Assembly (NCBI GenBank): GCA_034437455.1
Contig: DAOTUB010000062.1
Location: 1-14,465, forward strand
DNA: 14,465 nt
Direction: 5' to 3'
Origin: Anaerolineae bacterium
GTDB lineage: Bacteria > Chloroflexota > Anaerolineae > B4-G1
The notes under the pieces are model-generated. The model was not told where the DNA came from. It was given only the letters and a program-made list of their open reading frames with translations, and ran no database searches. Every line of letters begins with the position of its first letter. The stretch's first letter is position 1. A program made the translations under genes and the position numbers. Positions 1-14,465 of the stretch are shown here, in pieces.

Positions 1-453
1 CATGTGTTATACCCGGCGTGGGCATACTTTGTGACGCTCTTGAGCAGCCCAAATGCCTACCATCGCGCTGCCGCCGTCCGTCTCATCGCAGACTTGACCC
101 GGATCGACGATGCGCAACAATTTGAGACGATCTTTGAACGCTACTTTGACTTGCTGGATGACGAGAAAGTGATGGTCGCCCGTTACCTCGCGCAGAACGC
201 CTGGAAGATCGCAGAGGCCAAGCCATATCTGCGAGAAAAGATCACAGCACGCTTGTTGGACATAGACGCCACCCATCATCCACCGAGCCGTAAAGCCCTG
301 GTCAAGGCCGACGCCATTGCGTCCTTTAAAGTGTTCTTTCAAGAATCCAAACGCAAAGAGGGCATACGCGCCTTTGTCGAAGCGCAATTGGAGAGTGAAA
401 GCCCCAAGGCCCGCCAGGCAGCCAGTGCCTTTTTGAGACGCTACGGGCAATAA
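1..453 (+). CDS. 3' end of a gene that starts upstream of the window; hypothetical protein C-terminal fragment (about 150 aa visible). Mostly helical-looking, no recognisable catalytic motif.
   Basis: Frame 1 is open from nt 1 to TAA at 451-453. The translation looks protein-like (balanced composition), whereas the overlapping minus-strand ORF 7-552 is Gly/Cys/Leu-rich junk. No start codon context is visible because the gene begins upstream. Confidence 0.5.
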   Translation, partial: HVLYPAWAYFVTLLSSPNAYHRAAAVRLIADLTRIDDAQQFETIFERYFDLLDDEKVMVARYLAQNAWKIAEAKPYLREKITARLLDIDATHHPPSRKALVKADAIASFKVFFQESKRKEGIRAFVEAQLESESPKARQAASAFLRRYGQ

Positions 454-690: not shown

Positions 691-3018
691 TTGAAAATGA
701 CCTTACACGAGATCTCTATTGAGCAATCACATAGCCATTACACTATCCGGCAAACGGTTTTAGCCTGCGTGGAGCAAGTTTTCCCTTTTGGGGCTTTTGT
801 TCGCTTGCCAGATGGCACCCAGGGCTATGTACGCAAGCGCGAGCTGACCCTGGCCGGCAACCAAGACCCCCGCGAGGTCGTCTCTCCCGGACAAGAAATC
901 AAAGCTGTGGTAGTCGCCTTGCCCCAGGCTGAACAAAGCCTCGAGTTGAGCGTGCGTCAGGCCGAACCCGATCCCTGGGAAACATTCGGACAGTCCCAAG
1001 TCCGTGACACTGTCACAGCCACGGTCAAAAAGCTCTACAACAGAGGCGCCCTCGTCCAAGTCACTCCCGGCGTAGACGGGTTCATCCCATTGGCCGAGTT
1101 GGCACCCTGGCCGGTGGAAAAGCCGGATGACTTGCTCTGGGTCGGTGACCGGGTAGAAGCGATGATTACTCATCTTGACCGGCAGGCCAGGCGGATGTGG
1201 CTCAGCATCCGGCAACAAGTAAAGCACACAGCACGCGTAAGAGAGGTGCTGTCGTTTCTCAGCAAAAAGGAAGATCCGGAAGAGACTTTACCCCAGGAGG
1301 AACCCGTCACCCTTGAGAAAGACCAAGGCATAGACCCAGCCATCGCCCAGCAAGTGGGACGCATTTTGGTAGTGGATGACCATGACAAAGTACGGGAACC
1401 GCTGGCGGCATGGCTGCATCGGATGGGCTTTGCGACGGAACAAGCTAAATCCCCCCACCAGGCGCTCGACTGCTGCCTTGAAAACGCTTACGGGCTGGCA
1501 TTGATTGACCTGAACCTTTCAGGCCAAGACGGACTGGAACTTGTTCAGGCCTTGAAAGACTTGAACCCGGATATCCCAATAGCCATCATGAGCACTCCCG
1601 AATGGATTGCCCAACGGTTGGAAGCGCTGTCCACACTGCGTCCGGTTCATATATTCGCCAAGCCACTAGACCTGGACGAGATCCGCGAGCTGTTGGTCCA
1701 ATTGGCTCGCGGTGAAATATTCCCTCCCACCGCTTTCACTAAGCCAGAGGTCCAAAAATCACCTGCGGCCTCCTCACACATGGCTAAAATGATGCGCAGC
1801 GACCTATCGTTAGCAAAACGTTTCCAAGCTGGCCTACAGGAACTAGTCCAGCAAGGCCAGGCAGATCAGGGCATCCTTTTTCAGCTCGCTCCCGACTCGC
1901 AGCAAATTTCTATCGTCGCGCAGGCCGGGAACATGGCATTAAACCAGGCGGCTATGTACAACCTGCGCCAAAGCCCGGTCAAAGACGTGATCTATGAGCA
2001 AGATGAGGTATTTGAGACAGACGTCTCGCGTCACGCTCAAGGTCAATTCAGCAAGCTATTAGCGCTGCTGCCCTTTGAATCCTGCCTGGGCGTCCCCATC
2101 CCGGCCGCCGGTCAGGTACAACATGCCCTGTTTCTGTTTCATCGTGAGCCAGAGATCTTTTCCCGCTATCGCTTGCGAGATGCACGCGCCATGGCCGTGC
2201 TGTTTAGCGCAGCGCTAGAAAGTCAAGCATTGGAAAAACGTATCCAGTCTGTCAGTCCATTTTTGCTGAGCGGGCAACTAGCGGCCGGCTTTGGCCACGA
2301 AGTATATAACAAGATGTCCGGGTTAGAGCTACAGATTTGCAACCTACAATCCGACTGCCAAACTGTGCAGCGAGATTTGACAGGGTGCCAACCGGTAGAC
2401 GACGGCGCCCTCGACGCACTGCTCAAAGCCACGGGCCGGTTGTTAGAATCCGCACTAGACCTCAAAGGCACCTTGCAACTTTTTCGCGAACTCGTTCAGG
2501 CTGAGCAGCAAGACCAAGTGGACGTGAACGCAGTGACACAACGCGCCATTCAACTGCTGCGTACCACCGCAGGCCAGCACCAGGTCATCATAGAAGAAAA
2601 ACTGGTTCCAGACTTGCCCCCGGTCAGAGGCAGTGCCGTCCGCCTGCAACAGGTTTTCGTCAACCTGATGCTAAACGCGATCCAACAAACCGCCCTAAAA
2701 ATGGTAAAATGGCCCGAAGGCCAGGGGGTACTGAGCATCGCGACGACTTGGGAGCCAGCGGCCGAGTGTCCCGTGCAAGTGCGGTTTATGGATAACGGGC
2801 CCGGGATACACCGCCACTTGTGGGACAAGATTTTTACCCTGGGCTTTTCGACCCGACAGGGCGGAACAGGCCTGGGTTTGTTCATCGCCAAGAGCCTGAT
2901 CGAGTCCTTGGGCGGCAAGGTCTGCGTAGAACAAAGCATGATCCCTGAGGGGAGCATTTTTCGGGTGGAACTGCCAGCGGCCAAGCATTGTCAACGAGGA
3001 GCGAGCAGCGATGCATGA
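691..3018 (+). CDS. Hybrid sensor histidine kinase with tandem N-terminal S1 RNA-binding domains: S1, S1, REC, GAF, HisKA, HATPase_c (775 aa). The ORF track starts at TTG 691; an in-frame ATG at 697 is an alternative start.
   Basis: Coordinates are aa (nt) throughout.
- S1 folds, two copies: residues about 15-92 (FGAFVRLPDGTQGYVRKRELT ... SLELSVRQ) and about 101-176 (GALVQVTPGVDGFIPLAELA ... MWLSIRQ).
- REC, aa 224-340 (nt 1360-1710): RILVVDDHD, LALIDLNLSG, IMST, FAKP.
- GAF, aa about 365-515 (nt 1783-2235).
- HisKA H-box: LAAGFGHEVYNKMSGL (His536, nt 2296-2298).
- HATPase: N box VFVNLMLNAIQQT, G1 DNGPGI, G2 GGTGLGLFIAKSL.
- A TATAAT hexamer lies at 658-663 upstream.
- No strong Shine-Dalgarno sequence before 691/697. 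Confidence 0.85.
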   Translation: MKMTLHEISIEQSHSHYTIRQTVLACVEQVFPFGAFVRLPDGTQGYVRKRELTLAGNQDPREVVSPGQEIKAVVVALPQAEQSLELSVRQAEPDPWETFGQSQVRDTVTATVKKLYNRGALVQVTPGVDGFIPLAELAPWPVEKPDDLLWVGDRVEAMITHLDRQARRMWLSIRQQVKHTARVREVLSFLSKKEDPEETLPQEEPVTLEKDQGIDPAIAQQVGRILVVDDHDKVREPLAAWLHRMGFATEQAKSPHQALDCCLENAYGLALIDLNLSGQDGLELVQALKDLNPDIPIAIMSTPEWIAQRLEALSTLRPVHIFAKPLDLDEIRELLVQLARGEIFPPTAFTKPEVQKSPAASSHMAKMMRSDLSLAKRFQAGLQELVQQGQADQGILFQLAPDSQQISIVAQAGNMALNQAAMYNLRQSPVKDVIYEQDEVFETDVSRHAQGQFSKLLALLPFESCLGVPIPAAGQVQHALFLFHREPEIFSRYRLRDARAMAVLFSAALESQALEKRIQSVSPFLLSGQLAAGFGHEVYNKMSGLELQICNLQSDCQTVQRDLTGCQPVDDGALDALLKATGRLLESALDLKGTLQLFRELVQAEQQDQVDVNAVTQRAIQLLRTTAGQHQVIIEEKLVPDLPPVRGSAVRLQQVFVNLMLNAIQQTALKMVKWPEGQGVLSIATTWEPAAECPVQVRFMDNGPGIHRHLWDKIFTLGFSTRQGGTGLGLFIAKSLIESLGGKVCVEQSMIPEGSIFRVELPAAKHCQRGASSDA
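733..1218 (+). other. Tandem S1 (OB-fold) RNA-binding domain region of the 691-3018 kinase.
   Basis: Two roughly 75-aa repeats matching the S1 pattern G-x-V-x-G-x-V ... GAFV ... G-x-V-(H/R) ... S-E-L ... G-x-x-(I/V)-x-(V/A)-x-V-(L/I) ... (L/I)-S-(V/I)-R-Q. Seen in translation only; no HMM was run. Confidence 0.7.
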
Positions 3019-6000
3019 AGAACCGCTAAGGGTAGTACTGATAGACGACGAGCAAAGCCTGCGCGAGCCGTTAGCCAAGCGCCTACGAGACAAGTACAAC
3101 TATCACGTCGATGCTGCCGCCGATGCCCGTCAAGCCTGGCAGTTGATTACCGAGGCCAGTTCACCTTACGATGTGGCTCTAATCGACGATATGTTGACAC
3201 CTCAGGCCCAAGTTGAACCCCAACTGATTGGCATCGACCTTACACGCCGGATCAGAGAAGACCATCCCGAGACAGAATGCATCCTCTTCACCGGGTGGGG
3301 TATGGAGCGGGCGCTAGAGGGACTACGCGCCGGCGCGTACCGCTACCTGTCCAAGCCGATCAACATGGAAGAACTAGGCATGACCATCCGTATGGCAGCG
3401 GAGCATCGCCGGCTCAAACAGCAACTGGAAACCACCCGCCAGGAGAAAAAATGGCTACAGACGTTCCTGGAAATCGGTCGGGCAACGACTTCTGTCCTGG
3501 AATTGGATGAGGTTTTGGAACATGTCCATGCACAAATCAGTCTCCTTATGGATGCTTCTTGTATGGACGTCGTCCTATATGACAGTGCCAATCAAACGCT
3601 CAAGTTCGAGTTGGGCTATGACAAAGGGGTCAAGGAGACGAGATGGGAGCGCCCATTCACCGCAGACCATGGATTGACCGATTTGGTGATTCAACATCGT
3701 CACCCGCTGCTGATCAGAGATTATAAAAAAGAAACCCCTCCCGTTCTCGCCTATCAGCGTGGCGAAATGAGCCGTTCGTGGCTGGGCGTCCCCCTGATCG
3801 CGCGCGACCAGGTCATCGGGGCCATCACGGTGCAAAGCTATACACCGCACAAATTCGACGAGACGGATCAGCAAATCCTGGATACGGTGGCCAACCACAT
3901 AGCCAGCGCCATCCAAAACGCTCAATTATTCTCTGAACTGGTCAAGACCCAAAAGTGGCGCGAAGCGCTCATCAACAACACCCTAGATGCGGTGATCGCT
4001 ATTGACCAGGGCAAACGAGTGACGGTCTTTAACCAGCGCGCTGAACAGATGTTTGGCTGGCATGCGCGAGAAATCATAGGGCAGCCGGTCACCCAATTAC
4101 ATATGAGTACGGGAAAGGCCAAAGAGATCTTTGACACGGTAAACCATGAAGGAGAGATCTCGAGTCTGGAAGTAGAACTAAGACATCGGGACGGTACCGC
4201 TATCCCGGCGCGGCTTTCAGCAACGCGGATCAAAGACAGCAACGGTCATCCCATCGGGCAAGCGCGGTTTATGCGTGATTTACGCCAGGTCAACCTGTTG
4301 GAAGAACGGCTGCGGGCTTTGATCCGAGGAAATCGGGTCATTAACAGCAGTCTGGAATTAGAGCAAGTACTCAACCAGGTCATCCAAGCTGCACTAGAAG
4401 CTTTCCCGATGGCACAAGGGGGTGTTATTCACCTGTATGATAAACACAGCAGTGTATTGCGCCTCCAAGCAAATACTTTCAGTTACAGCCCTTCAGCCAT
4501 CGAGGCGTTGCACATGAAGCCCGGTGAAGGCATTGCCGGTTGGGTCTATATGCGCGGACAGCCCGTGGTGATCCCAGATGCACACCAGGATGAGCGTTAC
4601 AAGCTGATCGCCCATCCGGAAATCGCTCCCCACAAACCTATGGTGTGCGTACCCCTCAAAGTGAGAGATCAAGTACTTGGAACACTATCGCTCAACACAG
4701 TAGAGACCGGCAACACCTTTCAAGCCGAGGACCTGGGATTACTTTCCACATTTGCCGATCAGGCGGCTGTCGCCATCAACAACGCCCGCTTTTTTAGGGA
4801 ACAGGACCGCCGCCAGCAACTCTTGACCAGGCTGAACGAAGCGTCACGGCACATCCGTGCGGAAAAACCAATCCCCAAGCTCTTGCACGAAATCGTTCGC
4901 CAGGCGGTCCGGTTGGTCGACTGTTCGGCAGGCGCGCTGTTCCTCAACCGCCCCCACGTCAAGGAACTAGAATTACAAGTGACCTATGAACTACCCACCG
5001 AATTGGTTGGCAGTCATCTATCGCACACCGAAGGCTTGGTCGGTTTAGTTGCACGAACTGGCAAGTCCAAATTCATACGCAATTACTCAACATGGTCAAG
5101 ACCCACAGTGCTCTTTGAACCCTATAACTTTGAAAGCGTCGCTGGAATCCCTCTCAAACAAGCCGGCGAGGTACAAGCGGTCTTGCTCGTCGCTGACCAG
5201 ACCGGCACTCCGGCGCATCTGCAGCCGTCCGACCTGGAGATACTGGAGCGCCTGGCGGCACAGGCCGCTATCGAACTCGAGACCTCTCTATTGATGAGCC
5301 GAGAACAACGCGTGGCCAGTCAATTAGGTATCCTGCACCAAATCAGCGATTACATACAAGCAGCCAGAGACCTGGACAAAGTGTTGCACGTCGTCCTGAC
5401 GGGCGTGACGGCGGGTTATGGTCTGGGCTTTAATCGTGCGGCGCTGTTGCTGCTAGATGAGCGCCAGGAACACCTGGTGGGACGCATGGGCATCGGCCAA
5501 CTGGAGGAACCAGCAGCGCAACAAGACTGGGAGCAACACCACAAGCACAAATTAGAGGATTTTCAAAGATACCTCGAACTGTTGGAAAAGGACGCCCTGC
5601 CGTTGACGCCGGTGGGAGAGAAAATCCGCGACATCAGGCTGCCCCTCACGCCTCACGTCTGTGGCATCCTCATGCGGGTGATGCGCCAGCAACAGCACCT
5701 ACTCCTGACTCTAGAGGAATTAAACGAACTACCAGGCAGCTTTGTCAAGGTTTTCGACCCGGCACAGCCAATCATCGTTGCGCCCCTGCTGGCGCGCGGA
5801 GCGGTCATCGGACTGCTCATCGCCGATAACAAGTTCACTGCGTCGCCCATCACGCCGGAGGACACAGAGGCACTGCTGACCTTTGCCAACACGGCCGCGA
5901 TCGCCATCAGCAACGCACAACTTTACCACGAAACTCGGGTCGCACGAGAGCGGTTGCGCAGCTTTTACGAGGCCAGCAACGCCCTGGTCTCGTCCCAGGA

Positions 6001-9000
6001 TCCCGAACAAGTGCTCCGAAAAATCGTCGAACAAGCTCACCAGACGGCCAGCTCGGCCTGGACCGGCCTGATCTTGATCGACAAGGCTGGACAGGCACAA
6101 AAACTGGTCACGATGGGAATAGACGAGTACGGCGGATTTACCGTTCGGCCCGACGGGATCTCGATGCAGGCTATGTGCAGCGACCAAGCCCAAATCATCG
6201 AGGATGTCCGGGCAGAACGCGACCGCGTCAACCCAGGTTTGCTGCGCGACGGCATTGGCGCCGCTTTGTGTTTGCCCCTCTCCCTGCAAGAAAACCACTT
6301 TGGTGTGATGTGGCTGCACTATGCCATGCCGCGCCATTTCCCCATCAGTGAGGTTGAAGCCTTGCAGCTCTACGTCAATCAGGCGGCCATCGCTTACGAT
6401 GCTGCCCGACGTATGCAGCAGCTAGAAAACATGCGACGAGCGGCCGAGGCACTGGCTGGCGCTTCTAGCATAGCGGCAGTGCTCAAGCAAATAGCCGAAA
6501 GCGCCAGGATTGTCCTGAATGCCGACTCGTCCGTCGTCTGGCCGTACGATCACGAGAGACGCACCTTTTTGCCCGCCGAGCTAGAGACGGCCGGCATTTC
6601 ACCCGAGCTAGTCGAACAATTTCGAGATGTCGAACCTCAACCAGAAGGTACAACGGAAACAGTTTTGCATTTAGGGTGGATTGGCGTCTCGGACGTCGAC
6701 CAGGAGGTGCACCCCTTCCTGGGTCCCCCTGACAGAGGCTTGCGTGGGGCGATCACCGTCCAATCCTTCCAAGGGATCGCTTTACGGGCGGGCGACGAAA
6801 TTCTGGGCGTGCTGTACGCAGACTATGAAAGGCCGCGTAGCTTTAATAAAGCGGACCGCCGGCTGGCTGAAACCTTTGCCACTCACGCTTCCCTGGCCCT
6901 CAAGAAAGCCAGACTGCTGGACCAAATCAGCCAAGTGAGAGACACAGCCAAAGCCGTGGCCGAAGTCAGCATCCTGGAGAAACTAGCAAGTACGCTAGAC
7001 TCGATTACGCGGGGGACTTGCAAAACGCTCAACTGCGATGCCGTCACCCTCTACACTTTTGATCAGCGCAAAGACCAAATCGGGTTTCCCCCAACGGTGA
7101 TAGGGATACGAGACACGAAACAAGTCCTCGAGTTAGGCTTTGTGGCAAGGAACTCGGTTGTCGGCAAAATACTAGACTTGGGTCAAGTGCATGTGGCCGA
7201 AGACGCTCCTTCCGATCCCATCATGGGCGGGGTGTTTGTCAAACGTGAGGGTATCAAATCATCGCTCGGCGTCCCACTCCAGGTCGGCGACCAAAAAGTA
7301 GGGGTGATGTTTGTGAACTATCGCACCCCGCACCGTTTTACCGGTGAAGAACTGACCAACATCAAGCTCTTTGCGACCCAGGCTGCCATCGCCATCCGCA
7401 ACGCTCGGCTCATAGACGATATTTTCCACCGCAACATTCAGCTCCAGACCGTCACCGAGGTCTCCAAGTCAACCAGCACCCTTCTCGCCCCCGAAGCATT
7501 GATGCACCAGGCAGTCAACCTGATTCGAGAGCGCTTTGAACTCTACTATGTGGGTCTATTTTTAACCGATGAAAGCAGCAAGCATGCAGTATTGCGAGCC
7601 GGCACCGGTGACGCGGGTCAAAGAATGCTCACAGATGGCTACAAGCTAGAGATCGATGATCACTCGATGATTGGATGGAGCATCAACAACGCCCAACCAC
7701 GTATCGCGCTCGACATCGACAAAGAAAAAATCCGCTTCAACAACCCTCACCTGCCCGAGACTCACTCCGAGCTGGCGCTGCCGCTGATCAGCCGTGGTCG
7801 CTGCATCGGTGCCCTGACGGTGCAAAGCACCAGGCCAGATGCCTTTTCCTCTGAAGACGTCGCCGTGCTGCAAACGATGGCCGATCAATTGGCCATCGCC
7901 ATCGAGAACGCTCAGCTATATCGAGAAGAAACAGAACAGCTCCAGGAATCCCAGGCCCTGCAAAAAATAGCGATCTCTCTCGCCGGTAGCCTTGAGCTTG
8001 GTGAAGTGTTGAACCACGTGATGCAGGCAGCGATGGGCTTTACCGAAACAGATTCTGGCACCATCTTGTTGTGGAACGCAGAACAAGAAAATTTCACCTA
8101 CACACTCACCACAACGGGGCCAGAACGAACCCTACAGGTATATACCAGCCAAACCCGCGAGGAAGGCATAGCCCGGTCAATCATTGAGGAGCAAAAGACG
8201 GTCATCATTTCCAACGCCCAGGATGACCCCCGGATCAATCCCATTGCGATTGAAAAAGGCCGACGAGCGCTCATCGGCACTCCACTGGTGAGCCGCGAAG
8301 AAGTAATCGGCGTACTCTATGTAAGCAGCTTGGAACCCCGCCAGTTCCTTGCACAACAAGTGAGCTTGTTAAAAAGCCTGGCTAGCCAGGCTGCAGTGGC
8401 CATTGAAAGAGCGCGACAACACAAAGAGTTAAAAGAAACCAAAAGCGTCATCGGTGCCAGGACAGCACTGGCATGGATGGGGATGACCAGTAGCGCCTGG
8501 CGTCACACCATCGAAAAGCATTCCCTGACCATACGGGAGCAAGCACAACTCCTGCGCCAAGACTGGGAAAAAGTGATGCCGCATTCTCAAAAGCTCAAAG
8601 CCCAGGACCGCATCGCGATGATTGAGCGATTGACGACGCAAATCCTGCAAAAACCGATCACACCACCCCTTTCCAGCGAATCCGGTGTTCAGTTGGTATC
8701 GCTGACCACGCTGGTCAGCGAGCGTGCTAGACAATTATGGCAAAATGACCCCTACAAAAAGACCAAGCTCCAACTGGACTTGCAACTACCGGAGGAAGCG
8801 GCGGTCCGCACTAGCCCTGAATGGTTGCGACGGGCTTTTGATATCTTGGTGGACAATGCGGTGAATGCCGTTACAGACTGTCCTGTGCGCGAGATTACTA
8901 TCGGCACCAAAGCTTACAGCTCGGGAGTCAAGGTTTTCGTGTCGGACACTGGACCGGGCATCCCAGACGAGATGCAAGACAAAATCGGCCTTGAGGCGAT

Positions 9001-9172
9001 AGAGAAACCCAAAGATGCCAAAGGGCTCGGTATGGGGCTACTAATGGCCCACGTTATTGTACAAACTTATGGGGGGAAAATTTGGCTTGATTGCACCGGA
9101 CCCGAGGGCACGACCATGTCCATCTGGCTCCCCTTGGAAGCCCGACCCTCAGAGGGAGAGCAGACCTCATGA
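3011..9172 (+). CDS. Giant multi-sensor hybrid histidine kinase (2053 aa): N-terminal REC, GAF1, PAS, GAF2 through GAF9, divergent HisKA, HATPase_c. ATG 3011 overlaps the upstream stop (TGA 3016-3018) by 8 nt; SD GAGGAG at 2996-3001.
   Basis: - REC: VVLIDDEQ, VALIDDML, ILFTGW, LSKP.
- PAS: TLDAVIAIDQGKRVTVFNQRAEQMFGWHAREIIGQP at about nt 3950-4290.
- Nine GAF-like units, each closing with the helix motif (F/L)A-x-QAA(I/V)AI-x-NA(R/Q)L(Y/F/I). The nine closing motifs are:
  1. ANHIASAIQNAQLF
  2. ADQAAVAINNARFF
  3. AAQAAIELETSLL
  4. ANTAAIAISNAQLY
  5. NQAAIAYDAARR
  6. ATHASLALKKARLL
  7. ATQAAIAIRNARLI
  8. ADQLAIAIENAQLY
  9. ASQAAVAIERARQ
- Divergent H-box: LAWMGMTSSAWRHTIEKH, which aligns to LAxxGxxAxxxAHEIxNPL.
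- HATPase: N box FDILVDNAVNAV, G1 DTGPGI, G2 KGLGMGLLMAH. Confidence 0.9.
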   Translation: MHEEPLRVVLIDDEQSLREPLAKRLRDKYNYHVDAAADARQAWQLITEASSPYDVALIDDMLTPQAQVEPQLIGIDLTRRIREDHPETECILFTGWGMERALEGLRAGAYRYLSKPINMEELGMTIRMAAEHRRLKQQLETTRQEKKWLQTFLEIGRATTSVLELDEVLEHVHAQISLLMDASCMDVVLYDSANQTLKFELGYDKGVKETRWERPFTADHGLTDLVIQHRHPLLIRDYKKETPPVLAYQRGEMSRSWLGVPLIARDQVIGAITVQSYTPHKFDETDQQILDTVANHIASAIQNAQLFSELVKTQKWREALINNTLDAVIAIDQGKRVTVFNQRAEQMFGWHAREIIGQPVTQLHMSTGKAKEIFDTVNHEGEISSLEVELRHRDGTAIPARLSATRIKDSNGHPIGQARFMRDLRQVNLLEERLRALIRGNRVINSSLELEQVLNQVIQAALEAFPMAQGGVIHLYDKHSSVLRLQANTFSYSPSAIEALHMKPGEGIAGWVYMRGQPVVIPDAHQDERYKLIAHPEIAPHKPMVCVPLKVRDQVLGTLSLNTVETGNTFQAEDLGLLSTFADQAAVAINNARFFREQDRRQQLLTRLNEASRHIRAEKPIPKLLHEIVRQAVRLVDCSAGALFLNRPHVKELELQVTYELPTELVGSHLSHTEGLVGLVARTGKSKFIRNYSTWSRPTVLFEPYNFESVAGIPLKQAGEVQAVLLVADQTGTPAHLQPSDLEILERLAAQAAIELETSLLMSREQRVASQLGILHQISDYIQAARDLDKVLHVVLTGVTAGYGLGFNRAALLLLDERQEHLVGRMGIGQLEEPAAQQDWEQHHKHKLEDFQRYLELLEKDALPLTPVGEKIRDIRLPLTPHVCGILMRVMRQQQHLLLTLEELNELPGSFVKVFDPAQPIIVAPLLARGAVIGLLIADNKFTASPITPEDTEALLTFANTAAIAISNAQLYHETRVARERLRSFYEASNALVSSQDPEQVLRKIVEQAHQTASSAWTGLILIDKAGQAQKLVTMGIDEYGGFTVRPDGISMQAMCSDQAQIIEDVRAERDRVNPGLLRDGIGAALCLPLSLQENHFGVMWLHYAMPRHFPISEVEALQLYVNQAAIAYDAARRMQQLENMRRAAEALAGASSIAAVLKQIAESARIVLNADSSVVWPYDHERRTFLPAELETAGISPELVEQFRDVEPQPEGTTETVLHLGWIGVSDVDQEVHPFLGPPDRGLRGAITVQSFQGIALRAGDEILGVLYADYERPRSFNKADRRLAETFATHASLALKKARLLDQISQVRDTAKAVAEVSILEKLASTLDSITRGTCKTLNCDAVTLYTFDQRKDQIGFPPTVIGIRDTKQVLELGFVARNSVVGKILDLGQVHVAEDAPSDPIMGGVFVKREGIKSSLGVPLQVGDQKVGVMFVNYRTPHRFTGEELTNIKLFATQAAIAIRNARLIDDIFHRNIQLQTVTEVSKSTSTLLAPEALMHQAVNLIRERFELYYVGLFLTDESSKHAVLRAGTGDAGQRMLTDGYKLEIDDHSMIGWSINNAQPRIALDIDKEKIRFNNPHLPETHSELALPLISRGRCIGALTVQSTRPDAFSSEDVAVLQTMADQLAIAIENAQLYREETEQLQESQALQKIAISLAGSLELGEVLNHVMQAAMGFTETDSGTILLWNAEQENFTYTLTTTGPERTLQVYTSQTREEGIARSIIEEQKTVIISNAQDDPRINPIAIEKGRRALIGTPLVSREEVIGVLYVSSLEPRQFLAQQVSLLKSLASQAAVAIERARQHKELKETKSVIGARTALAWMGMTSSAWRHTIEKHSLTIREQAQLLRQDWEKVMPHSQKLKAQDRIAMIERLTTQILQKPITPPLSSESGVQLVSLTTLVSERARQLWQNDPYKKTKLQLDLQLPEEAAVRTSPEWLRRAFDILVDNAVNAVTDCPVREITIGTKAYSSGVKVFVSDTGPGIPDEMQDKIGLEAIEKPKDAKGLGMGLLMAHVIVQTYGGKIWLDCTGPEGTTMSIWLPLEARPSEGEQTS

Positions 9173-9558
9173 AGCACTTCTTATTGGTCGGTAACCCATC
9201 AGGCTCGCAGTGGTCCTCGATCTTGCGTCGGGCACTGTCTACTTTGGGTGAGCTGCGCATCGCGTCTGAAGCAAACGCCCCACGGGAAATCTCGAGAAAA
9301 AATTACGATGCGATCATTGTAGACGCCGGCGCCGTTCAAGACGTTAACGCTCTGACATCTCTTCTGCGTCAAGACCACCCTCAGGCACGCGTGATCGTTG
9401 CCACCGCGTCTCCCACCTGGAGACGCGCGCGCGAGGCACTCCGTGCCGGCGCCGCCGACTATATCCGCAAATCGCTGGATGAAAAAGAACTCCTGGTCGC
9501 TATCCAGGAAGCGTTATTAGTTCCCCTTCCTGCCTTATCCGAGTCGAAACGGAGGTAA
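9169..9558 (+). CDS. Stand-alone receiver-like protein (129 aa from ATG 9169); atypical or pseudo-receiver. The ATG overlaps the stop of the giant kinase (ATGA at 9169-9172); GGGAGAG lies 12-18 nt upstream. The ORF track's earlier start (9091) would overlap the kinase by 82 nt and seems less likely.
   Basis: CheY-like layout. The conserved acidic pair is replaced in LLVGNPS (DD to GN). The putative phospho-Asp is kept in AIIVDAG, a T/S position in VATAS, and a Lys in IRKS. Seen directly in translation. Confidence 0.6.
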   Translation: MKHFLLVGNPSGSQWSSILRRALSTLGELRIASEANAPREISRKNYDAIIVDAGAVQDVNALTSLLRQDHPQARVIVATASPTWRRAREALRAGAADYIRKSLDEKELLVAIQEALLVPLPALSESKRR

Positions 9559-9560
9559 AT

Positions 9561-11528
9561 ATGGCCCAGTTCACTGTGCTCTTTGTTGATAACGATCAAG
9601 ATTTTCTCAATACCCGCACCGAATTTCTAGAAAATGCCGGGTATCGCGTGATCAAAGCCGCCAGTCTTGATCAGGCCCGAAAGTTCCTAAGTGACGCCCT
9701 GGTCCATCTGGCCATCCTGGATATCCGTATAGTCGACGACGATGATGAAAAGGACATCAGCGGCCTGGTTCTGGCCAAAGAGCCGGCCTACAGCCTCATC
9801 CCCAAAATTATCCTCACGAATTTTCCGAGCTATCAAGATGTGCGGGAGGTTCTAAAACCTGCCTTACAGGGCCTCCCTCCTGCCGTGGACTTTTTATCCA
9901 AAAAGGACGGCCCGACAATCATGATTCAGGCCGTCCACGAGGCCTTTGACAAATATGTACGCCTCAATCAGGACTTGCGCATTGACTGGGGCCCACGGGA
10001 GTCTCTGAATCCTCTCCATCTGGCGCGCCTGCTAAACCCTGACGCGTCTAACGAGGTTTTGGTACAACGCGCCGATGAACTAGAGGACCTCCTGCGCCGC
10101 GTATTCTGTGATTATCAACAGGTCAGAATTGGCCGGTTGCTGTGGCATATCGAACAGCGCCTCTGCGTACCGGTCTTGGCGCAATCTACCCAGCAAGCGA
10201 CCGACGCCCGGATCCTGGTGTGCGGAGAACGGGGACCTATGGAGCAAGAACTGGCGTGTATGCAAGAGCTGGTACCAGAACGCGGGGCAACGTTGGTCAA
10301 CACGACCGATACCGTGCATTTCTGTGCAGCAATCTATGCCCTGGCCGACGCCCAGTTGGAAAGCATACAAACCTTGAGAGAGTTGTTTCAAAGCGGCAAG
10401 AAACGCCCTCTCACAACCGCCCTGGATCGCCTGTTAAAAGACACGCTGGCAGACTGGCACCAACGCGGACAAGCTCTGCAGGAATCGGGCCACTTGATCG
10501 AAGTTTATCGCCGCTGGGCAGAGCTGGACCAGGACGGTACGTCTCGGTCAAAGGTCAAGCGCCACGTAGAGAAACTGGTCCAGATATCCCGCGCGTTAAG
10601 CGCAGTGGAAATTCAAAGCCTTGACCAAGGCATCACATTTCAGTTCCCTCAACAAGCACCGTTGAACTATCCTGACCCCGTGGCTATCCTGTACACCCCA
10701 TTGGAATCCTATTCCGGGCCAATCGTGTGTCGCGTCTCGCCCGGCCGCCTGACGCCTGACAACGTGCTCATAGATGCCCAGCAACGGACCTGGCTAACCG
10801 ACCTGGCTCGCGCCGGACAGGCCCCCCAATGGTGGGATTTCGTGTGCCTGGAGGCGCTGTTTCGCTTTGATCTCAGTCAGGCCCCAGACCTGCTGGCCTG
10901 GCAAGAGTTCGAAGAATGCTTGATTTGCCCTAACGTGCTGCACGATAATCTACGGGAACAGGACGTGGTGCAAGATCTGCGCATGAGCGTGACGCTCATT
11001 GAGCAAATCCGCAGACAAGCCGGCAGTGAAGCCGGACCCGACCCCCGACCTTACTATGCAGGCCTGCTGGCATGGGTCGTCGGCGCCATCGCCCAACACG
11101 ATCCAAGCAGGCTGTATACGCCGGCCGAGCAAATGCGCAACGCACACCTCTTGATGGCCGCCGCTATGCTCGCGAACCGGTTAAGCGAGTCAACAGCCAA
11201 AGTGAACCCTGGTGGGTCGCTGCGCTTGGATGCAGAAGGCACTGTCTGGATGGGAGAACGCCGGGTCGATGAACTGGGAGGACAAGAGCTTGATTTGTTG
11301 CGCCTGCTCTATGAACAACCGGGACAACTCGTCAAGCGCGAGCGCATCATCGAATCTGTATTCGGCGAACCTTATGCCGAGGGCGACAAACACCAGGCAG
11401 GCCGCATTAACTCCCTGATAAGACGTCTGCGCGTCAAGATTGAACCCAATTCCCGCCGTCCGCGCTACCTACTGACCGTCAAGGGCAAAGGTTATCGCTT
11501 GCAGGTAAAGAACAAACCTCAAGAGTAG
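9561..11528 (+). CDS. 655-aa response regulator: N-terminal REC, then a central protein-kinase-like (Hanks/APH-type) domain that is probably a pseudokinase, then a C-terminal OmpR/PhoB-type winged-helix DNA-binding domain. SD GGAGG 7 nt upstream of ATG 9561.
   Basis: - REC: LFVDNDQD, LAILDIR, IILTNF, VLKP.
- Kinase-like catalytic loop: SPGRLTPDNVLID, aa 394-405 (nt about 10740-10775). It aligns to HRDLKPENILID / HGDLHPGNVLV with the catalytic D replaced by R.
- DFG-like motif: WLTDLARAG, aa 411-419.
- APE-like plus DxWSxG-like region: APQWWDFVCLEA.
- wHTH: LLRLLYEQPGQLVKRERIIESVFG ... RINSLIRRLRVKIE ... YLLTVKGKGYRL. Confidence 0.85.
   Translation: MAQFTVLFVDNDQDFLNTRTEFLENAGYRVIKAASLDQARKFLSDALVHLAILDIRIVDDDDEKDISGLVLAKEPAYSLIPKIILTNFPSYQDVREVLKPALQGLPPAVDFLSKKDGPTIMIQAVHEAFDKYVRLNQDLRIDWGPRESLNPLHLARLLNPDASNEVLVQRADELEDLLRRVFCDYQQVRIGRLLWHIEQRLCVPVLAQSTQQATDARILVCGERGPMEQELACMQELVPERGATLVNTTDTVHFCAAIYALADAQLESIQTLRELFQSGKKRPLTTALDRLLKDTLADWHQRGQALQESGHLIEVYRRWAELDQDGTSRSKVKRHVEKLVQISRALSAVEIQSLDQGITFQFPQQAPLNYPDPVAILYTPLESYSGPIVCRVSPGRLTPDNVLIDAQQRTWLTDLARAGQAPQWWDFVCLEALFRFDLSQAPDLLAWQEFEECLICPNVLHDNLREQDVVQDLRMSVTLIEQIRRQAGSEAGPDPRPYYAGLLAWVVGAIAQHDPSRLYTPAEQMRNAHLLMAAAMLANRLSESTAKVNPGGSLRLDAEGTVWMGERRVDELGGQELDLLRLLYEQPGQLVKRERIIESVFGEPYAEGDKHQAGRINSLIRRLRVKIEPNSRRPRYLLTVKGKGYRLQVKNKPQE
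10100..11130 (+). other. Kinase-like (probable pseudokinase) insert domain of the 9561-11528 regulator.
   Basis: Approximate span inferred from the positions of the catalytic-loop and DFG-like motifs. The N-lobe assignment is tentative because no clear Gly-rich loop or VAIK lysine is seen. Confidence 0.45.
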
Positions 11529-11571
11529 GCAAAATCGTCTTGCTGTTATCTTTTTATCACACAAGCAAGAG

Positions 11572-11581
11572 ATGACGTCAT
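11572..11581. promoter_or_regulatory. Perfect 10-bp palindrome ATGACGTCAT (core TGACGTCA).
   Basis: Read directly; self-complementary. Lies 44 nt after the regulator gene's stop and upstream of the SPFH-like gene. Confidence 0.5.
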
Positions 11582-11587
11582 AAAAGT

Positions 11588-11615
11588 GTGACATACCATC
11601 ATCATACAGTGACAC
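11588..11615 (+). promoter_or_regulatory. Direct repeats GTGACAT (11588-11594) and GTGACAC (11609-11615), 21 bp apart (about two helical turns). Candidate binding sites for a winged-helix (OmpR-type) regulator.
   Basis: Read directly. The 21-bp phasing and a TGAC core shared with the neighbouring palindromes are the only evidence. Confidence 0.35.
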
Positions 11616-11616
11616 A

Positions 11617-11658
11617 TTGCAAGGTAACTCCAATCCGGACATCATATTGTCCGGATTG
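11617..11658 (+). promoter_or_regulatory. Putative promoter/operator for the SPFH-like operon. A -35-like TTGCAA (11617-11622) is followed by a perfect 11-bp inverted repeat CAATCCGGACA-tcatat-TGTCCGGATTG (11631-11658). The repeat's AT-rich loop (TCATAT) is the best -10 candidate.
   Basis: The inverted repeat is an exact reverse complement (read directly). The promoter hexamers are weak matches and the spacer is 18-19 bp, so the promoter call is tentative. A palindrome centred on a -10 element is a classic repressor-operator geometry. Confidence 0.4.
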
Positions 11659-11791
11659 TTCATGGGTTAACATGATGCTTGCAAGGCCCTATACACCGCG
11701 GCTTTGCTAGTAAAAATGTGGAGCCCAGCCCATCGCTCCCCACATAGATCAAACTTGCGCGGGTCAGTTTGAAAACGAGAGGAGAATAAAG

Positions 11792-13111
11792 ATGGAAAGT
11801 TACCAAGACGGACATGCGGAACAAGCGAAAGCGCGTCCCATAAAGTATTGGCCGCCCGATGGTTCCAAATTCAATGGCCTGGTAGGTCCTGCTAAACAAA
11901 TGCGGATCCTGCCCCTGGTCCCCAAACTCCACATCGTCCCAGCAGGCACGTGCGCCGTCCTTACATTGCCCGGAGGGAAGCGCACAATCTTTCAAGAAGG
12001 TATGCACGTGCTCAAGGATCTCCCCGCAGGCGTATGCTTGCTGCGCTACGTCGATATGCGGGAACATCGCACCCCCATATCACTCACCGAGGCCTGGTGT
12101 AAAGATGGGTGGCGCGGCAAGCTTGCGCTACAGATTCACTGGCGCGTCAATGACGCGGCACACCTCGTGGATGTCGCCGACCCTGTCGGGAACCTCACCA
12201 CCGCCGCCAAGGCGAGTGTGCGCGCTGTCATCGAGACGACGCCCCACGACAAGCTGATCGGTGGGAGCGACGAGCAAGCCATAGCGACCGATTCCCTGGC
12301 GGCGGCCGTGACCGCTAAACTGCAAGACAATCCGGCCACCAAGGGTATCAAAATCCTGCGCGTCCTGATCACCGAACGCCAAGGTGACACACGCTGCATC
12401 GAGATCGCGCAAGAAAAAACGGTCGAGCACAAGCGGCAGGAACTGGTCTTGCTGCAGGAGGAAACGGAGCGCAAGCGCAAAGAAGAGGAAAGAAAAGTGC
12501 GCATCCGGGAAGCAGAGATCGAGGCCGAAACGGAAGGCCGGCTCGCTGCTATCAAGTGGCAGCAAGTGCAGTTAGAACAGGCAGCGGAACTGAACAAACA
12601 ACATCACGAACGGGCGCTAAAAATCATCGAGGCCTACGCTCAGGTGCTGAGCAAGGCAGCAGAACTCGGACAACTGGAGGCACTCGGTGTCTCCTCGCGT
12701 CGCCGGCCCGAACTCGCCACCGGTGGCTTGGAGAGTATGCTGAACCAAGGGCTGAGCAACTTGCAAAGTGCGCTTCAGGCGCCAACCATCAGCCCGCTTC
12801 CCACGTATGCCAGCTCTTACAATGAAAAAGCCGCCCTGGCCGCGCGCCTCGCGGCCGAGGCTGCCGAGGTGGCCGAACTGGAAGGGGTCAAGCAGTGCTA
12901 CGTAGGCGTGTGCAAGAAAGAAAAGGGTAACACGGTTTTCGTCTGGCTGGATGGCCGACGGTTGAGCATCTGCTGCCCCTTGGACTACCCTCAAACCGCT
13001 CCCAAAGTGCAATGGGCTGACAACGGCCACCACAAAGTGCCGCTCAATTGGTCTGAAGGGATGTCGCTCTCGCACATCGTAGCGGACATCCGGGCAACCG
13101 CCCAAGCCTGA
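11792..13111 (+). CDS. SPFH/band-7 (stomatin/flotillin-like) domain protein, 439 aa. No N-terminal transmembrane helix. Followed by a long ER/K-rich charged helix and a Cys-containing C-terminal tail. SD GAGAGGAG 8-15 nt upstream of the ATG.
   Basis: - The N-terminal 45 aa are hydrophilic.
- SPFH core: HIVPAGTCAVLTLPGGKRTIFQEGMHVL ... LRYVDMREHRTPIS ... CKDGW matches IVPxGxxGVVxxFGK ... PGLHF ... VDLRE ... TKDN.
- Band-7 signature-like ATKGIKILRVLITE.
- Charged helix: QEKTVEHKRQELVLLQEETERKRKEEERKVRIREAEIEAETE.
- Tail: CYVGVCKKEKGNTVFVWLDGRRLSICCPLDYP. Confidence 0.75.
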   Translation: MESYQDGHAEQAKARPIKYWPPDGSKFNGLVGPAKQMRILPLVPKLHIVPAGTCAVLTLPGGKRTIFQEGMHVLKDLPAGVCLLRYVDMREHRTPISLTEAWCKDGWRGKLALQIHWRVNDAAHLVDVADPVGNLTTAAKASVRAVIETTPHDKLIGGSDEQAIATDSLAAAVTAKLQDNPATKGIKILRVLITERQGDTRCIEIAQEKTVEHKRQELVLLQEETERKRKEEERKVRIREAEIEAETEGRLAAIKWQQVQLEQAAELNKQHHERALKIIEAYAQVLSKAAELGQLEALGVSSRRRPELATGGLESMLNQGLSNLQSALQAPTISPLPTYASSYNEKAALAARLAAEAAEVAELEGVKQCYVGVCKKEKGNTVFVWLDGRRLSICCPLDYPQTAPKVQWADNGHHKVPLNWSEGMSLSHIVADIRATAQA

Positions 13112-13139
13112 AAACACTGACTCTATGACGAGGTGATAA

Positions 13140-14336
13140 ATGCAAGAGACACCTTTCATACATACGGCCTACCGTCAAGAGACTCTAGTCGAGTCCGGCT
13201 TGTTCAATCACCTAGGAGTAGCCCACGAGCAGTTGCCCGGCTATCACGCCTTGTTTGCTGCTCGGGTCCTGGTGACGCCCTATGAAATCTTGGCCGAAAG
13301 AAAGTGGGGCATGGTAGAAAGAGATCTGCTAGACGAGGTTCTGGACAGACAGAGGCGCTTTATCGCCAGCCTACACTACATAGATCCTCATTCCACCAGC
13401 CCTGACCCTAGCCTCAAGACGGCAGCGCTGCGCTATGTCGCTCGACCGGAGACGCGGCAAATAGACACGATACTGGTGGGCAAAGTCTTTGCCCACCAGA
13501 TCGACCAGGCTCGTGATATGGCTCTCGCCTGGTACAAGGAAATCGAAGCACTGTTTTCCCGTGACTACAAGCTGCAACCGCTCAAGTCAGAAGAGGAATT
13601 CATAACCCAATCGGGGCAACAACTGCTCAAAAGCATCTCTGAGCCCACACAGACAGAAGTCAGACGCTACGAGATGTTCTTGCCCAGGTCGACCGAACGA
13701 GAAGTAAGGGAAACCCACTATGTCGTGTATCCTTTTATGTGGCATCGAAACGGCATGGATCAAGTATGGCAAGTTATGGCGTCAATGTCAGCACCTGTCA
13801 TACTCAGCGTTATGCTGCGTCCGGCTTATTTGTACGAAGCGGAAGAGCTGCATTTGGCGCGATTTTACGAGGCCACAAAAAATCTCAAGTCCGAACGCGT
13901 CGCCGACCACGTGCTAGGGGAACAAGCCGCGCAGATATACGCCGGATACCTCCGGACCTGGCGCCAACCTTTCCTGGTGCGCGCGCAGGTCACCGCACCG
14001 CAAGGGACCCACCGCGCGCTGGCACGCGCGGTGGGATGTGCACTGTCATACGGCGCGCCGGCCAGTGGCGATGACAGACATAGCCCGTTCCCTGGTTACG
14101 AGTTGATCACACCCACCAAAGAGGACCGCAAGACCGCACGCGACAATGTATGCTGGCTCGAGATGCAAGACTGGGGGACTGACCAAGCTGCACCAGCCTA
14201 TCGTAGGTTTCGATACCTGACCGACTTGAAAGGCGCCCATTGCTTGTTTCGTCTCCCGTTCGTGCCCAAGGCCGGCTTGCCTGGCGCACAATTTGACAAA
14301 TCGTCAACGCCGGACGCAGACTCGAACAATCGATAG
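13140..14336 (+). CDS. Hypothetical protein, 398 aa, no recognisable domain; apparently soluble. Starts 28 nt after the SPFH-like gene's stop with SD GAGG 6 nt upstream, so it is probably co-transcribed.
   Basis: Long ORF with protein-like composition, tightly linked on the same strand. I see no catalytic or structural motif I can name, and no hydrophobic transmembrane segment. Confidence 0.55.
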   Translation: MQETPFIHTAYRQETLVESGLFNHLGVAHEQLPGYHALFAARVLVTPYEILAERKWGMVERDLLDEVLDRQRRFIASLHYIDPHSTSPDPSLKTAALRYVARPETRQIDTILVGKVFAHQIDQARDMALAWYKEIEALFSRDYKLQPLKSEEEFITQSGQQLLKSISEPTQTEVRRYEMFLPRSTEREVRETHYVVYPFMWHRNGMDQVWQVMASMSAPVILSVMLRPAYLYEAEELHLARFYEATKNLKSERVADHVLGEQAAQIYAGYLRTWRQPFLVRAQVTAPQGTHRALARAVGCALSYGAPASGDDRHSPFPGYELITPTKEDRKTARDNVCWLEMQDWGTDQAAPAYRRFRYLTDLKGAHCLFRLPFVPKAGLPGAQFDKSSTPDADSNNR

Positions 14337-14465
14337 ATGACTCCGCTGAAAAAAGTCTAAAACTCGCAAGTCCAAGCGGGCCGAAAGAGGTCCAACTTGG
14401 ACAAAGCGTTCCGCAAGTGAGACAAAAAAGAAGCGCAAAGAAAAACAAAGGGCAACTGCTGGCAA

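Follow-up and report, generated by a model that had tools for sequence, protein, structure and literature searches.

A Two-Gene Locus of Chloroflexota Couples an SPFH Protein with a Predicted Non-catalytic E2-Fold Tail to a Motor-Less VirB4/HerA-Type Docking Domain

What do two adjacent genes at the edge of a bacterial signaling island, one encoding an SPFH/Band_7 protein and the other a 398-residue companion, do for the cell that carries them? The question is raised by a contig of 14,465 nucleotides (nt) from an Anaerolineae bacterium (DAOTUB010000062.1, assembly GCA_034437455.1), which we analyzed in its entirety and refer to here as the window; its substantial genes all lie on the plus strand. 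A first-pass annotation, made from the letters alone, had singled out the two open reading frames, and we find them at 11792-13111 and 13140-14336, separated by only 28 nt and each with its own ribosome-binding site (GGAGA 8 nt ahead of the ATG of the SPFH gene and GAGGTGA ahead of the ATG of its partner). We propose, with a probability of about 0.5 for the explanation as a whole, that they form an operon of two genes for a hitherto undescribed assembly module built on SPFH, namely an inducible ring or cage of the SPFH protein that would recruit a VirB4-N-domain-like adaptor through the RWD-like end of the SPFH protein and serve as an output module in conflict or stress. The architecture of the pair, meaning its domain identities and the absence of an ATPase domain and of a catalytic cysteine, is well supported; its biological role we infer from the company it keeps. 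The features of the pair, with positions in amino acids (aa) where a protein is meant, are these:

11792 to 13111, plus strand: gene for the SPFH / coiled-coil / RWD-like protein (open reading frame, 439 aa; Band_7 match; alignment A2)
11906 to 11932, plus strand: short hydrophobic motif (aa 39-47, ILPLVPKLH; hydropathy and alignment A2)
11933 to 12484, plus strand: SPFH/Band_7 domain (aa 48-231; Pfam match and cysteine conservation)
12390 to 12676, plus strand: ER/K-rich helical (coiled-coil) region (about aa 200-295; sequence reading, partly helices in the fragment model)
12686 to 12712, plus strand: invariant linear motif GVSSRRRPE (aa 299-307; alignment A2, low-confidence linker in the model)
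12809 to 13105, plus strand: predicted C-terminal E2/UEV/RWD-fold domain (about aa 340-438; fragment model and conserved signature)
13140 to 14336, plus strand: gene for a stand-alone VirB4-N-terminal-domain-like / EccE-like protein without an ATPase domain (398 aa)

The core of the upstream protein is readily identified. Pfam Band_7 (PF01145) matches aa 48-231, corresponding to profile positions 2-175 of 176, at E = 1e-8 and 35.9 bits against a gathering score of 23.6. The SPFH core read by eye in the first-pass annotation is thereby confirmed, and the ER/K-rich helix that it placed after the core holds up as well, being visible in the sequence at about aa 200-295 and modeled in part as helices. 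Conservation in this family was judged from an alignment (A2) of 16 SPFH sequences with 41-77% identity. Among these homologues GVSSRRRPE, which sits between the coiled coil and the RWD-like domain as a linker modeled with a predicted local distance difference test score (pLDDT) below 50, has G299, S301-S302, R303-R305 and E307 invariant in 16 of 16 and its remaining two positions nearly so, and it is a candidate short linear motif. It is not present in the distant homologues of loci L016 and L018. An acidic motif of the partner, YLYEAEE, is degraded in the distant partners whose SPFH protein lacks the RRR motif; as covariation, a charge pairing between the two motifs is a case for which the data are too thin to call. 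Two cysteines of the SPFH domain, C54 (GTC54AV) and C103 (C103xDGW), are also invariant in all 16 homologues; together with C395 of the tail they place three invariant cysteines in a cytoplasmic scaffold, where they could serve redox sensing or cross-linking.

For the C-terminal tail of this protein we modeled aa 284-439 from a 12-sequence alignment, and the last ~100 residues fold as a helix, four strands and a helix, a block with pLDDT 79-90. This fold matches E2 enzymes, the bacterial Cap2 and BubB among them, and its signature, C395-x3-Y399-P400-x3-P404 with W420, corresponds to the YPxxxP turn of the E2/RWD fold. At ~95 aa the domain is short, as UEV and RWD domains are, and it shows what defines those domains, an alpha-beta4-alpha core with a YPxxxP turn and no catalytic cysteine. 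The first-pass annotation had seen here an extra tail with four cysteines spaced CxxxC...CC. The tail and the cysteines (C369, C374, C394 and C395) exist, but their spacing is Cx4C...CC and the tail as a whole is an RWD-like domain; C395 is present in 16 of 16 homologues and C369 in 8 of 16, whereas C374 and C394 are private to the window sequence. A conserved metal-binding cysteine cluster in the tail is ruled out, since only one of the four cysteines is conserved.

Does the tail then act as an enzyme? Active ubiquitin-like conjugation, with the tail a working E2 that modifies the partner or some other target, would be suggested by the match to Cap2 and BubB, by the invariance of C395 and by a Prok-E2_E gene and a ThiF/JAB gene that lie 3.3 kb downstream in the related locus L001. 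C395, however, is placed on the strand before the YP motif and the catalytic cysteine of an E2 belongs in the loop after strand 4; no conserved cysteine follows Y399 and no HPN motif occurs in the 16 tails; the domain is short; and no E1, ubiquitin-like or JAB gene is conserved beside the pair, the instance in L001 being the only one and lying beyond an integrase gene. We reject an active E2, the least probable of all the readings considered here, because the catalytic cysteine and the HPN motif are missing, and on the same two grounds the model makes the tail, with good support, a non-catalytic E2/UEV/RWD-fold domain. Such non-catalytic domains normally act as protein-protein docking modules. 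Pfam gave no match for the isolated tail and no significant RWD or UQ_con match for the window protein; a distant relative, of the type found in L022/L023, has a weak Pfam RWD match (E = 0.015).

The partner had been described in the first-pass annotation as unclassifiable and as unlike NfeD. The second statement is correct, and the first is correct for sequence families: there is no match in Pfam (even at E <= 10), in NCBIfam, in PADLOC or among PDB sequences (phmmer), a profile of the partner family (broader alignment A4) has no match in the PDB, and no segment of the protein exceeds a hydropathy of 1.4. Its fold, however, can be named. The AlphaFold2 model built from 27 aligned sequences (A1, 35-87% identity) has a pLDDT of 86 and a predicted template modeling score of 0.88, and the 13 best Foldseek matches to it, a check that the first-pass annotation had suggested, are all TrwK/VirB4 chains. 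The partner thus has the fold of the VirB4 N-terminal domain, which is also that of EccE.

The relatives of the partner point in the same direction. A profile search of 1.84 billion representatives returned 482 of them, the majority stand-alone, and most of the 150 best representatives measure 360-410 aa. Many others reach 700-1100 aa; in them the domain takes up residues 1-400 and DUF87/HerA/FtsK/TrwB P-loops come after it, and the partner ends at the point where these long relatives begin their DUF87/ATPase domain. Single relatives fuse TIR to the partner domain, or REC to the partner domain and DUF87; the TIR fusion (P0074, in L013-L015) is a 552-aa protein seen on ~1.7 kb contigs only. Walker A ([AG]xxxxGK[ST]) is absent from all 27 members of the family. 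The partner and the N-domains of DUF87/HerA-type ATPases are homologues. Because the structural matches are to VirB4, because long relatives bear an ATPase and because Walker A is missing, we regard the partner as the N-terminal docking domain of the VirB4/HerA-type ATPase lineage with its motor absent, an assignment that is well supported.

It might be objected that a protein ending exactly where an ATPase domain would begin is a functionless truncated fragment of a VirB4/HerA-type ATPase, its adjacency to the SPFH gene a matter of history, particularly as full-length relatives that bear the ATPase exist, also near a Band_7 gene. Yet the stand-alone form is the family majority; the window partner is intact, with its own ribosome-binding site; 35 columns are invariant over the 27 sequences, and the C-terminus (FRLPF-PxxGxPG) is strongly conserved even at ~25% identity. 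No conjugation or secretion genes lie nearby, and searches of plasmids, phages and viral contigs (IMG/VR included) gave no matches for the family. A decayed remnant is therefore a highly improbable account of the partner, and an origin of the pair in a mobile element or in conjugation was likewise rejected for want of plasmid, phage or IMG/VR matches.

A crucial question is whether the two genes belong together beyond a single genome. We assembled contexts from the contigs of close and distant homologues and from a metagenome scan seeded with A1, A4 being too divergent to serve as a seed, and scanned all loci with hidden Markov models of both families. In 21 distinct contexts the partner gene is immediately preceded, in the same orientation, by an SPFH-type gene; across them partner identity falls to ~28-35% and SPFH identity to the window's protein is as low as 26-28%. 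Among loci with sufficient upstream sequence a single one departs from this arrangement, an IS200-like transposase gene standing there upstream of the partner. The proposal of a two-gene module thus finds ample support, and the pair co-occurs well outside the genome of the window.

Distant relatives vary the theme. In an Ardenticatenaceae genome (L020/L021), a relative combining the N-domain with a DUF87/FtsK ATPase has a Band_7 gene in its cluster, and in L022/L023 the gene just ahead of one for an N-domain with a degenerate DUF87 encodes a protein whose sole part in common with the SPFH protein of the window is the RWD-like tail (CAHDYPSTAPTVQ). From the latter loci it follows that the RWD-like tail and the N-domain travel together without a recognizable SPFH domain. 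In L016/L017, conversely, the SPFH protein is without the RWD-like tail and is nevertheless paired with the partner. That both the SPFH and the RWD-like parts track the partner domain suggests more than one contact.

Several of these loci merit description in their own right. At L020/L021 (5624-11437) the order is Band_7 (with a weak MVP-shoulder match), a 149-aa protein, a double-zinc-ribbon protein, the N-domain + DUF87/FtsK ATPase (957 aa) and a 181-aa protein, and the cluster is flanked on each side by paralogous DUF2637-HTH genes. L022/L023 (3872-14068) comprises a peptidase C14 (caspase-like), an HSP70, a 522-aa protein with the RWD tail, the N-domain + degenerate DUF87 protein (784 aa) and uncharacterized proteins of 635 and 563 aa; it adjoins a TIR-NB-ARC-TPR gene and has the look of a more extensive conflict system centered on the same RWD-to-N-domain couple. 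L007 (6792-12570), and L008 with it, carries two paralogous SPFH + partner pairs that are oriented toward each other, with a RelA/SpoT-TGS-STAND gene as their neighbor; the first SPFH gene of L007 appears split over two reading frames, which may reflect a frameshift or an assembly error.

The partner family is rare: it accounts for 29 clusters in a set of 5.8 billion proteins and is present in a single one of 185,579 genomes chosen to represent species. All named relatives are Chloroflexota (Anaerolineae, Ardenticatenaceae, Ktedonobacteraceae and Chlorohelix). One locus, L004 (GCA_048938245.1), in which GAF kinase and GerE response-regulator genes of bacterial type accompany the pair, was deposited as a Promethearchaeota (Asgard) metagenome-assembled genome (MAG); the archaeal label may be due to a binning contaminant or to lateral transfer.

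How might such a pair work? In the solved SPFH assemblies, HflK/C, flotillin and stomatin, the SPFH domain and coiled coil form rings or cages in which the C-terminal ends converge, and in VirB4 and related DUF87/HerA/FtsK-type ATPases it is through the N-terminal domain that the motor docks with its partners. By analogy, the SPFH protein of the window would oligomerize into a ring or cage, may be seated at the membrane through a short LPFVG motif instead of a transmembrane helix, and would hold out its RWD-like domains for the VirB4-N-domain-like partner to bind; the two together would form a scaffold that sequesters or organizes a target. The pair would be made on demand as the output of sensors, which in the window would be two hybrid histidine kinases acting on a REC-pseudokinase-winged-helix regulator and elsewhere STAND-TPR regulators with a radical-SAM peptide cassette, and its role would lie in conflict (anti-invader or programmed-response) or in stress in filamentous Chloroflexota. 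An ancestor probably coupled the SPFH assembly to a hexameric HerA/VirB4-type ATPase, loosely like FtsH inside HflK/C; the motor would later have been lost and the docking domain kept.

The membrane seating in this scheme bears on the claim of the first-pass annotation that the SPFH protein lacks a membrane anchor. In 19-residue windows of Kyte-Doolittle hydropathy there is no canonical transmembrane helix, and the claim stands to that extent; the top window (1.57, aa 39-57, ILPLVPKLHIVPAGTCAVL) overlaps the first SPFH strand and holds three prolines, one lysine and one histidine. The sole hydrophobic feature preceding the SPFH domain across the 16 homologues is the LPFVGxxL motif of ~10 residues, which is too short and too rich in proline and glycine for a membrane-spanning helix and cannot span the bilayer. 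Because the motif scores 1.3-2.3 in the homologues, it may still form a membrane-dipping patch, and on this point the claim needs qualifying.

These observations bring in a more conventional view, that the pair is a housekeeping module of envelope stress or membrane maintenance in which the SPFH protein organizes or repairs membrane, the partner is an adaptor and the two-component island induces both, with no invaders involved. The SPFH family is classically tied to membrane organization and protease regulation. The conserved hydrophobic motif ahead of the SPFH domain fits this view, as do the link of the pair to two-component sensors rich in GAF and PAS and the lack of a PADLOC match. On the other side stand the missing transmembrane anchor, the absence of NfeD, protease and PspA genes from the contexts examined, a rarity and patchiness unlike those of housekeeping genes, the recurrence of immune-type neighbors and the TIR fusion of the partner domain. 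We consider a housekeeping role rather unlikely.

The signaling genes of the window are the natural starting point for the neighborhood of the pair. Upstream of the SPFH gene lie the following:

4 to 453, plus strand: HEAT-repeat gene, cut (open reading frame)
691 to 3018, plus strand: S1-S1-REC-GAF-HATPase hybrid kinase (Pfam)
3011 to 9172, plus strand: REC-PAS-9xGAF-HATPase kinase, 2053 aa (Pfam)
9091 to 9558, plus strand: open reading frame with a single receiver domain (REC) (Pfam)
9561 to 11528, plus strand: REC / TCAD9 pseudokinase / OmpR-type winged-helix regulator, 655 aa (Pfam)
11529 to 11791, unstranded: 263-nt intergenic region that separates the regulator gene from the SPFH gene (sequence, repeats, partial conservation with L001)
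11631 to 11658, plus strand: perfect inverted repeat with 11-nt arms, a hairpin (repeat search, L001 alignment, folding)

This arrangement, which we call the type A neighborhood (S1-REC kinase, REC-GAF kinase, REC-TCAD9/APH and winged helix), recurs with the pair. In L001, from an Anaerolineae MAG, the gene order is that of the window and the regulator gene precedes the pair; in the distant L016/L017, at ~30% partner identity, the pair stands at the head and the kinase-like part and the winged helix are carried by different proteins; and split versions related to the regulator accompany the pair in L005 as well as in L016/L017. The tie of the pair to this type of signaling island, as proposed in the first-pass annotation, is thus upheld by the same families at great divergence. 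Its placement of the pair downstream of an operator does not survive as a conserved feature, since the kinases and the regulator follow the pair in L016/L017.

The regulator matches TCAD9 (in Pfam, "Ternary complex associated domain 9") with 37.1 bits, under the cut-off of 40. TCAD names are said to stem from Kaur et al. 2020, in the text of which the term was not found. In its kinase-like domain the catalytic aspartate of the HGD motif is replaced (PGRLTPDN in the window and PGQLTADN in L001, where L016 has HGDLHGDN and L005 HGDLHTGN), and the label of pseudokinase, already given in the first-pass annotation, is justified by this replacement.

The island has oddities of its own. It is unusual to find an RNA-binding S1 pair fused to a REC-GAF histidine kinase, and L001 and L016/L017 show this architecture alongside the SPFH and partner genes as well. 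The gene of the 2053-aa kinase (3011-9172) shares its first 8 nt with the end of the S1-S1-REC-GAF kinase gene before it, and its last ~80 nt with the single-REC open reading frame (9091-9558). The Pfam match of this reading frame covers only profile positions 30-110, and the real start of the gene probably lies after 9172. At the single-REC position L001 carries an extra REC + CyanoTRADDas_TM gene, which the window lacks.

Between the regulator and the pair, the 263 nt at 11529-11791 probably hold the promoter and 5' leader of the two genes. They had been described as a palindrome-rich operator region, a description that we do not uphold: there is one perfect 11-nt inverted repeat, with a few weak ones. 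The position of the hairpin is kept in L001 (~8360-8390) and its arms are wholly different (CAATCCGGACA versus GAGAGCCGGCT); the 54-nt stretch that holds it folds with -23.5 kcal/mol (z -5.0) in the window and -32.2 kcal/mol (z -7.7) in L001; and no T-run follows it. Since pairing is kept while the sequence of the arms changes, an RNA hairpin, whether terminator or leader, appears to fit better than an operator, and the operator reading of the main palindrome was rejected for the same reason. At the other end of the pair, the window stops 129 nt past the partner gene; this terminal stretch (14337-14465) is A-rich (…GACAAAAAAGAAGCGCAAAGAAAAACAAAGG…) and contains no terminator-like hairpin.

Elsewhere the pair keeps different company. 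In the type B neighborhood it adjoins AAA_16-TPR (STAND-like), GNAT and radical-SAM/SPASM genes with small open reading frames and sometimes a DksA/TraR-type zinc finger, as seen in L002, L004, L007/L008, L009-L011, L025-L027 and a contig of JGI 3300042731. An example is L009 (3032-8644). The small open reading frames of the cassette measure 61-70 aa, and one of them ends in DSDCACG. The radical-SAM proteins resemble peptide maturases, with matches all far below family cut-offs, and the cassette looks like an uncharacterized RiPP-like (ribosomally synthesized and post-translationally modified) peptide system under STAND control.

One could therefore take the pair for an accessory of such a peptide system, a complex that handles, exports or senses the peptide or confers immunity to it, with the peptide genes of the window off-contig or replaced by two-component control. 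In many contexts the radical-SAM/SPASM gene does adjoin the pair, usually with the GNAT, AAA_16-TPR and small open reading frames described above, and the VirB4/EccE fold derives from secretion machines. But the pair occurs without a radical-SAM gene in the window, L001, L005, L016-L019, L024 and L033; neither protein has a transmembrane segment, and no transporter or ATPase is present to drive export; and matches so far below their cut-offs leave no RiPP class that could be named. This accessory role, peptide genes lost from view in the window included, strikes us as doubtful.

A third kind of surrounding gene recalls immunity. Near the pair and its relatives are STAND NTPases, RelA/SpoT-STAND, CHAT, SIR2, KAP-TIR, PIN/MazE and HEPN/NTase genes, and further type I restriction-modification, type III CRISPR and RT-Cas1-Cas2 genes. 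A conflict or defense role is favored on account of the rarity, the patchy distribution, the immune-type neighbors and the TIR-fused relative, and as gene neighborhoods go these tilt toward conflict or defense rather than housekeeping membrane upkeep. A bolder version can be offered tentatively and at well below even odds, namely that the pair is a new immune or programmed-response effector, in which an SPFH cage, assembled when histidine-kinase/pseudokinase or STAND sensors signal, captures with its RWD-like domains the motor-less adaptor, a descendant of HerA/VirB4-type ATPases once coupled to SPFH, and then sequesters a target or perturbs the membrane. As part of that same tentative version, the adaptor would sometimes be replaced by TIR-fused or ATPase-fused forms and the target would belong either to the invader or to the host.

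Several points weigh against our proposal of an inducible, adaptor-recruiting SPFH assembly in conflict or stress. The formation of rings or cages by this SPFH protein is presumed from solved SPFH proteins, and contact between the RWD-like domain and the partner is a presumption too; moreover, the RWD-like tail cannot be the sole interface, given the pair without it in L016/L017. That the adjacent regulator controls the pair is likewise deduced from synteny. A scan for sigma-70-like promoters found no plus-strand site upstream of the SPFH gene, such a scan being uninformative for Chloroflexota. The association with defense islands is anecdotal, from ~15 contigs, and the window itself holds no defense genes. 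In PADLOC-DB 2.0, a check bearing on the defense role that the first-pass annotation had entertained, neither the SPFH protein nor the partner has a match, nor does the regulator, and distant relatives are recognized as generic HerA or TIR parts only.

SPFH proteins are ubiquitous scaffolds, and the clients that they enclose or organize are known for few of them, such as FtsH in HflK/C. The pair, in which the SPFH protein has shed the membrane anchor, acquired an E2-fold docking domain and become obligately tied to a VirB4-N-domain-like protein, offers a tractable two-protein system for how SPFH assemblies recruit clients. The N-domain of the VirB4/HerA type has an independent evolutionary life, being stand-alone, TIR-fused, REC-fused or ATPase-fused, and the fold of the partner helps to annotate several hundred clusters of "hypothetical" proteins. 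Were the conflict role correct, the pair would add a new type of effector or scaffold to the immune repertoire of filamentous Chloroflexota, linked to two unusual inputs, pseudokinase response regulators and radical-SAM peptide cassettes; were the effector version correct as well, scaffold-based (signalosome-like) immunity would have a counterpart in bacteria, one in which an E2-fold domain serves purely for assembly.

How, finally, does the pair compare with known systems? The closest in organization are the SPFH-NfeD operons (stomatin/NfeD, FloT-YuaF/NfeD2 and QmcA-YbbJ), which likewise join an SPFH + coiled-coil protein to one dedicated partner in a tight two-gene operon. The SPFH protein of the window differs from theirs by lacking an N-terminal transmembrane helix or hairpin and by carrying an RWD/UEV-like C-terminal domain, and its partner differs from NfeD (PF01957) in having no NfeD/OB-fold match, no transmembrane segment and the VirB4-N-domain fold. 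The likeness to HflK/C-FtsH is conceptual: in L020/L021 Band_7 is clustered with a hexamer-type P-loop ATPase that bears the partner domain N-terminally, but this ATPase is of the FtsK/HerA/VirB4 superfamily rather than AAA+ and no protease accompanies it, while the window family is without an ATPase domain and its cage is a proposal by analogy.

With the VirB4/TrwK N-domain and the cytosolic domain of EccE the partner shares 7-10% sequence identity and no corresponding Pfam or PDB-sequence match. It has neither an ATPase domain nor transmembrane helices, whereas EccE (PF11203) is defined by two N-terminal transmembrane helices and a cytosolic domain in an ESX locus. No type IV (T4SS) or type VII secretion system genes are nearby, and none of the T4SS components VirB3, VirB6, VirB8 and coupling protein occurs in the window or the related loci examined. 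The UEV/RWD domains of Tsg101, Mms2, GCN2-RWD, Knl1 and FANCL are the counterparts of the tail, which differs from them by its fusion to an SPFH protein.

Two bodies of work on conflict systems come closest to the parts. An EccE3-like domain joined to a VirB4-like FtsK/HerA ATPase occurs in extended type III-A CoCoNuT defense loci (Bell et al. 2024, PMC11090510), and the long relatives of the partner share this "EccE3-HerA" type of architecture; in the window the domain is stand-alone and coupled to SPFH, and there are no McrBC, CoCoNuT or vWA genes. For the conflict systems of multicellular bacteria, Kaur et al. 2020 (PMC7159879) proposed that Band7-like domains act as modules that form superstructures. 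With those systems our loci share an SPFH-type domain in conflict neighborhoods of Chloroflexi-like filamentous bacteria, and STAND, TIR, caspase and HSP70 neighbors recur near relatives of the pair. In the window, however, Band7 is a separate protein and not a domain in the C-terminal effector position; the vWA-MoxR-VMAP (or iSTAND) core is missing from the window and related loci, TCAD9 being the sole shared domain; and PMC7159879 does not mention the SPFH + VirB4-N-domain pair. A fusion of SPFH to RWD, or an SPFH + VirB4-N-domain pair, was not found in the searchable literature. The folds are individually known, and what is new is an SPFH scaffold with this dedicated operonic partner and this domain content.

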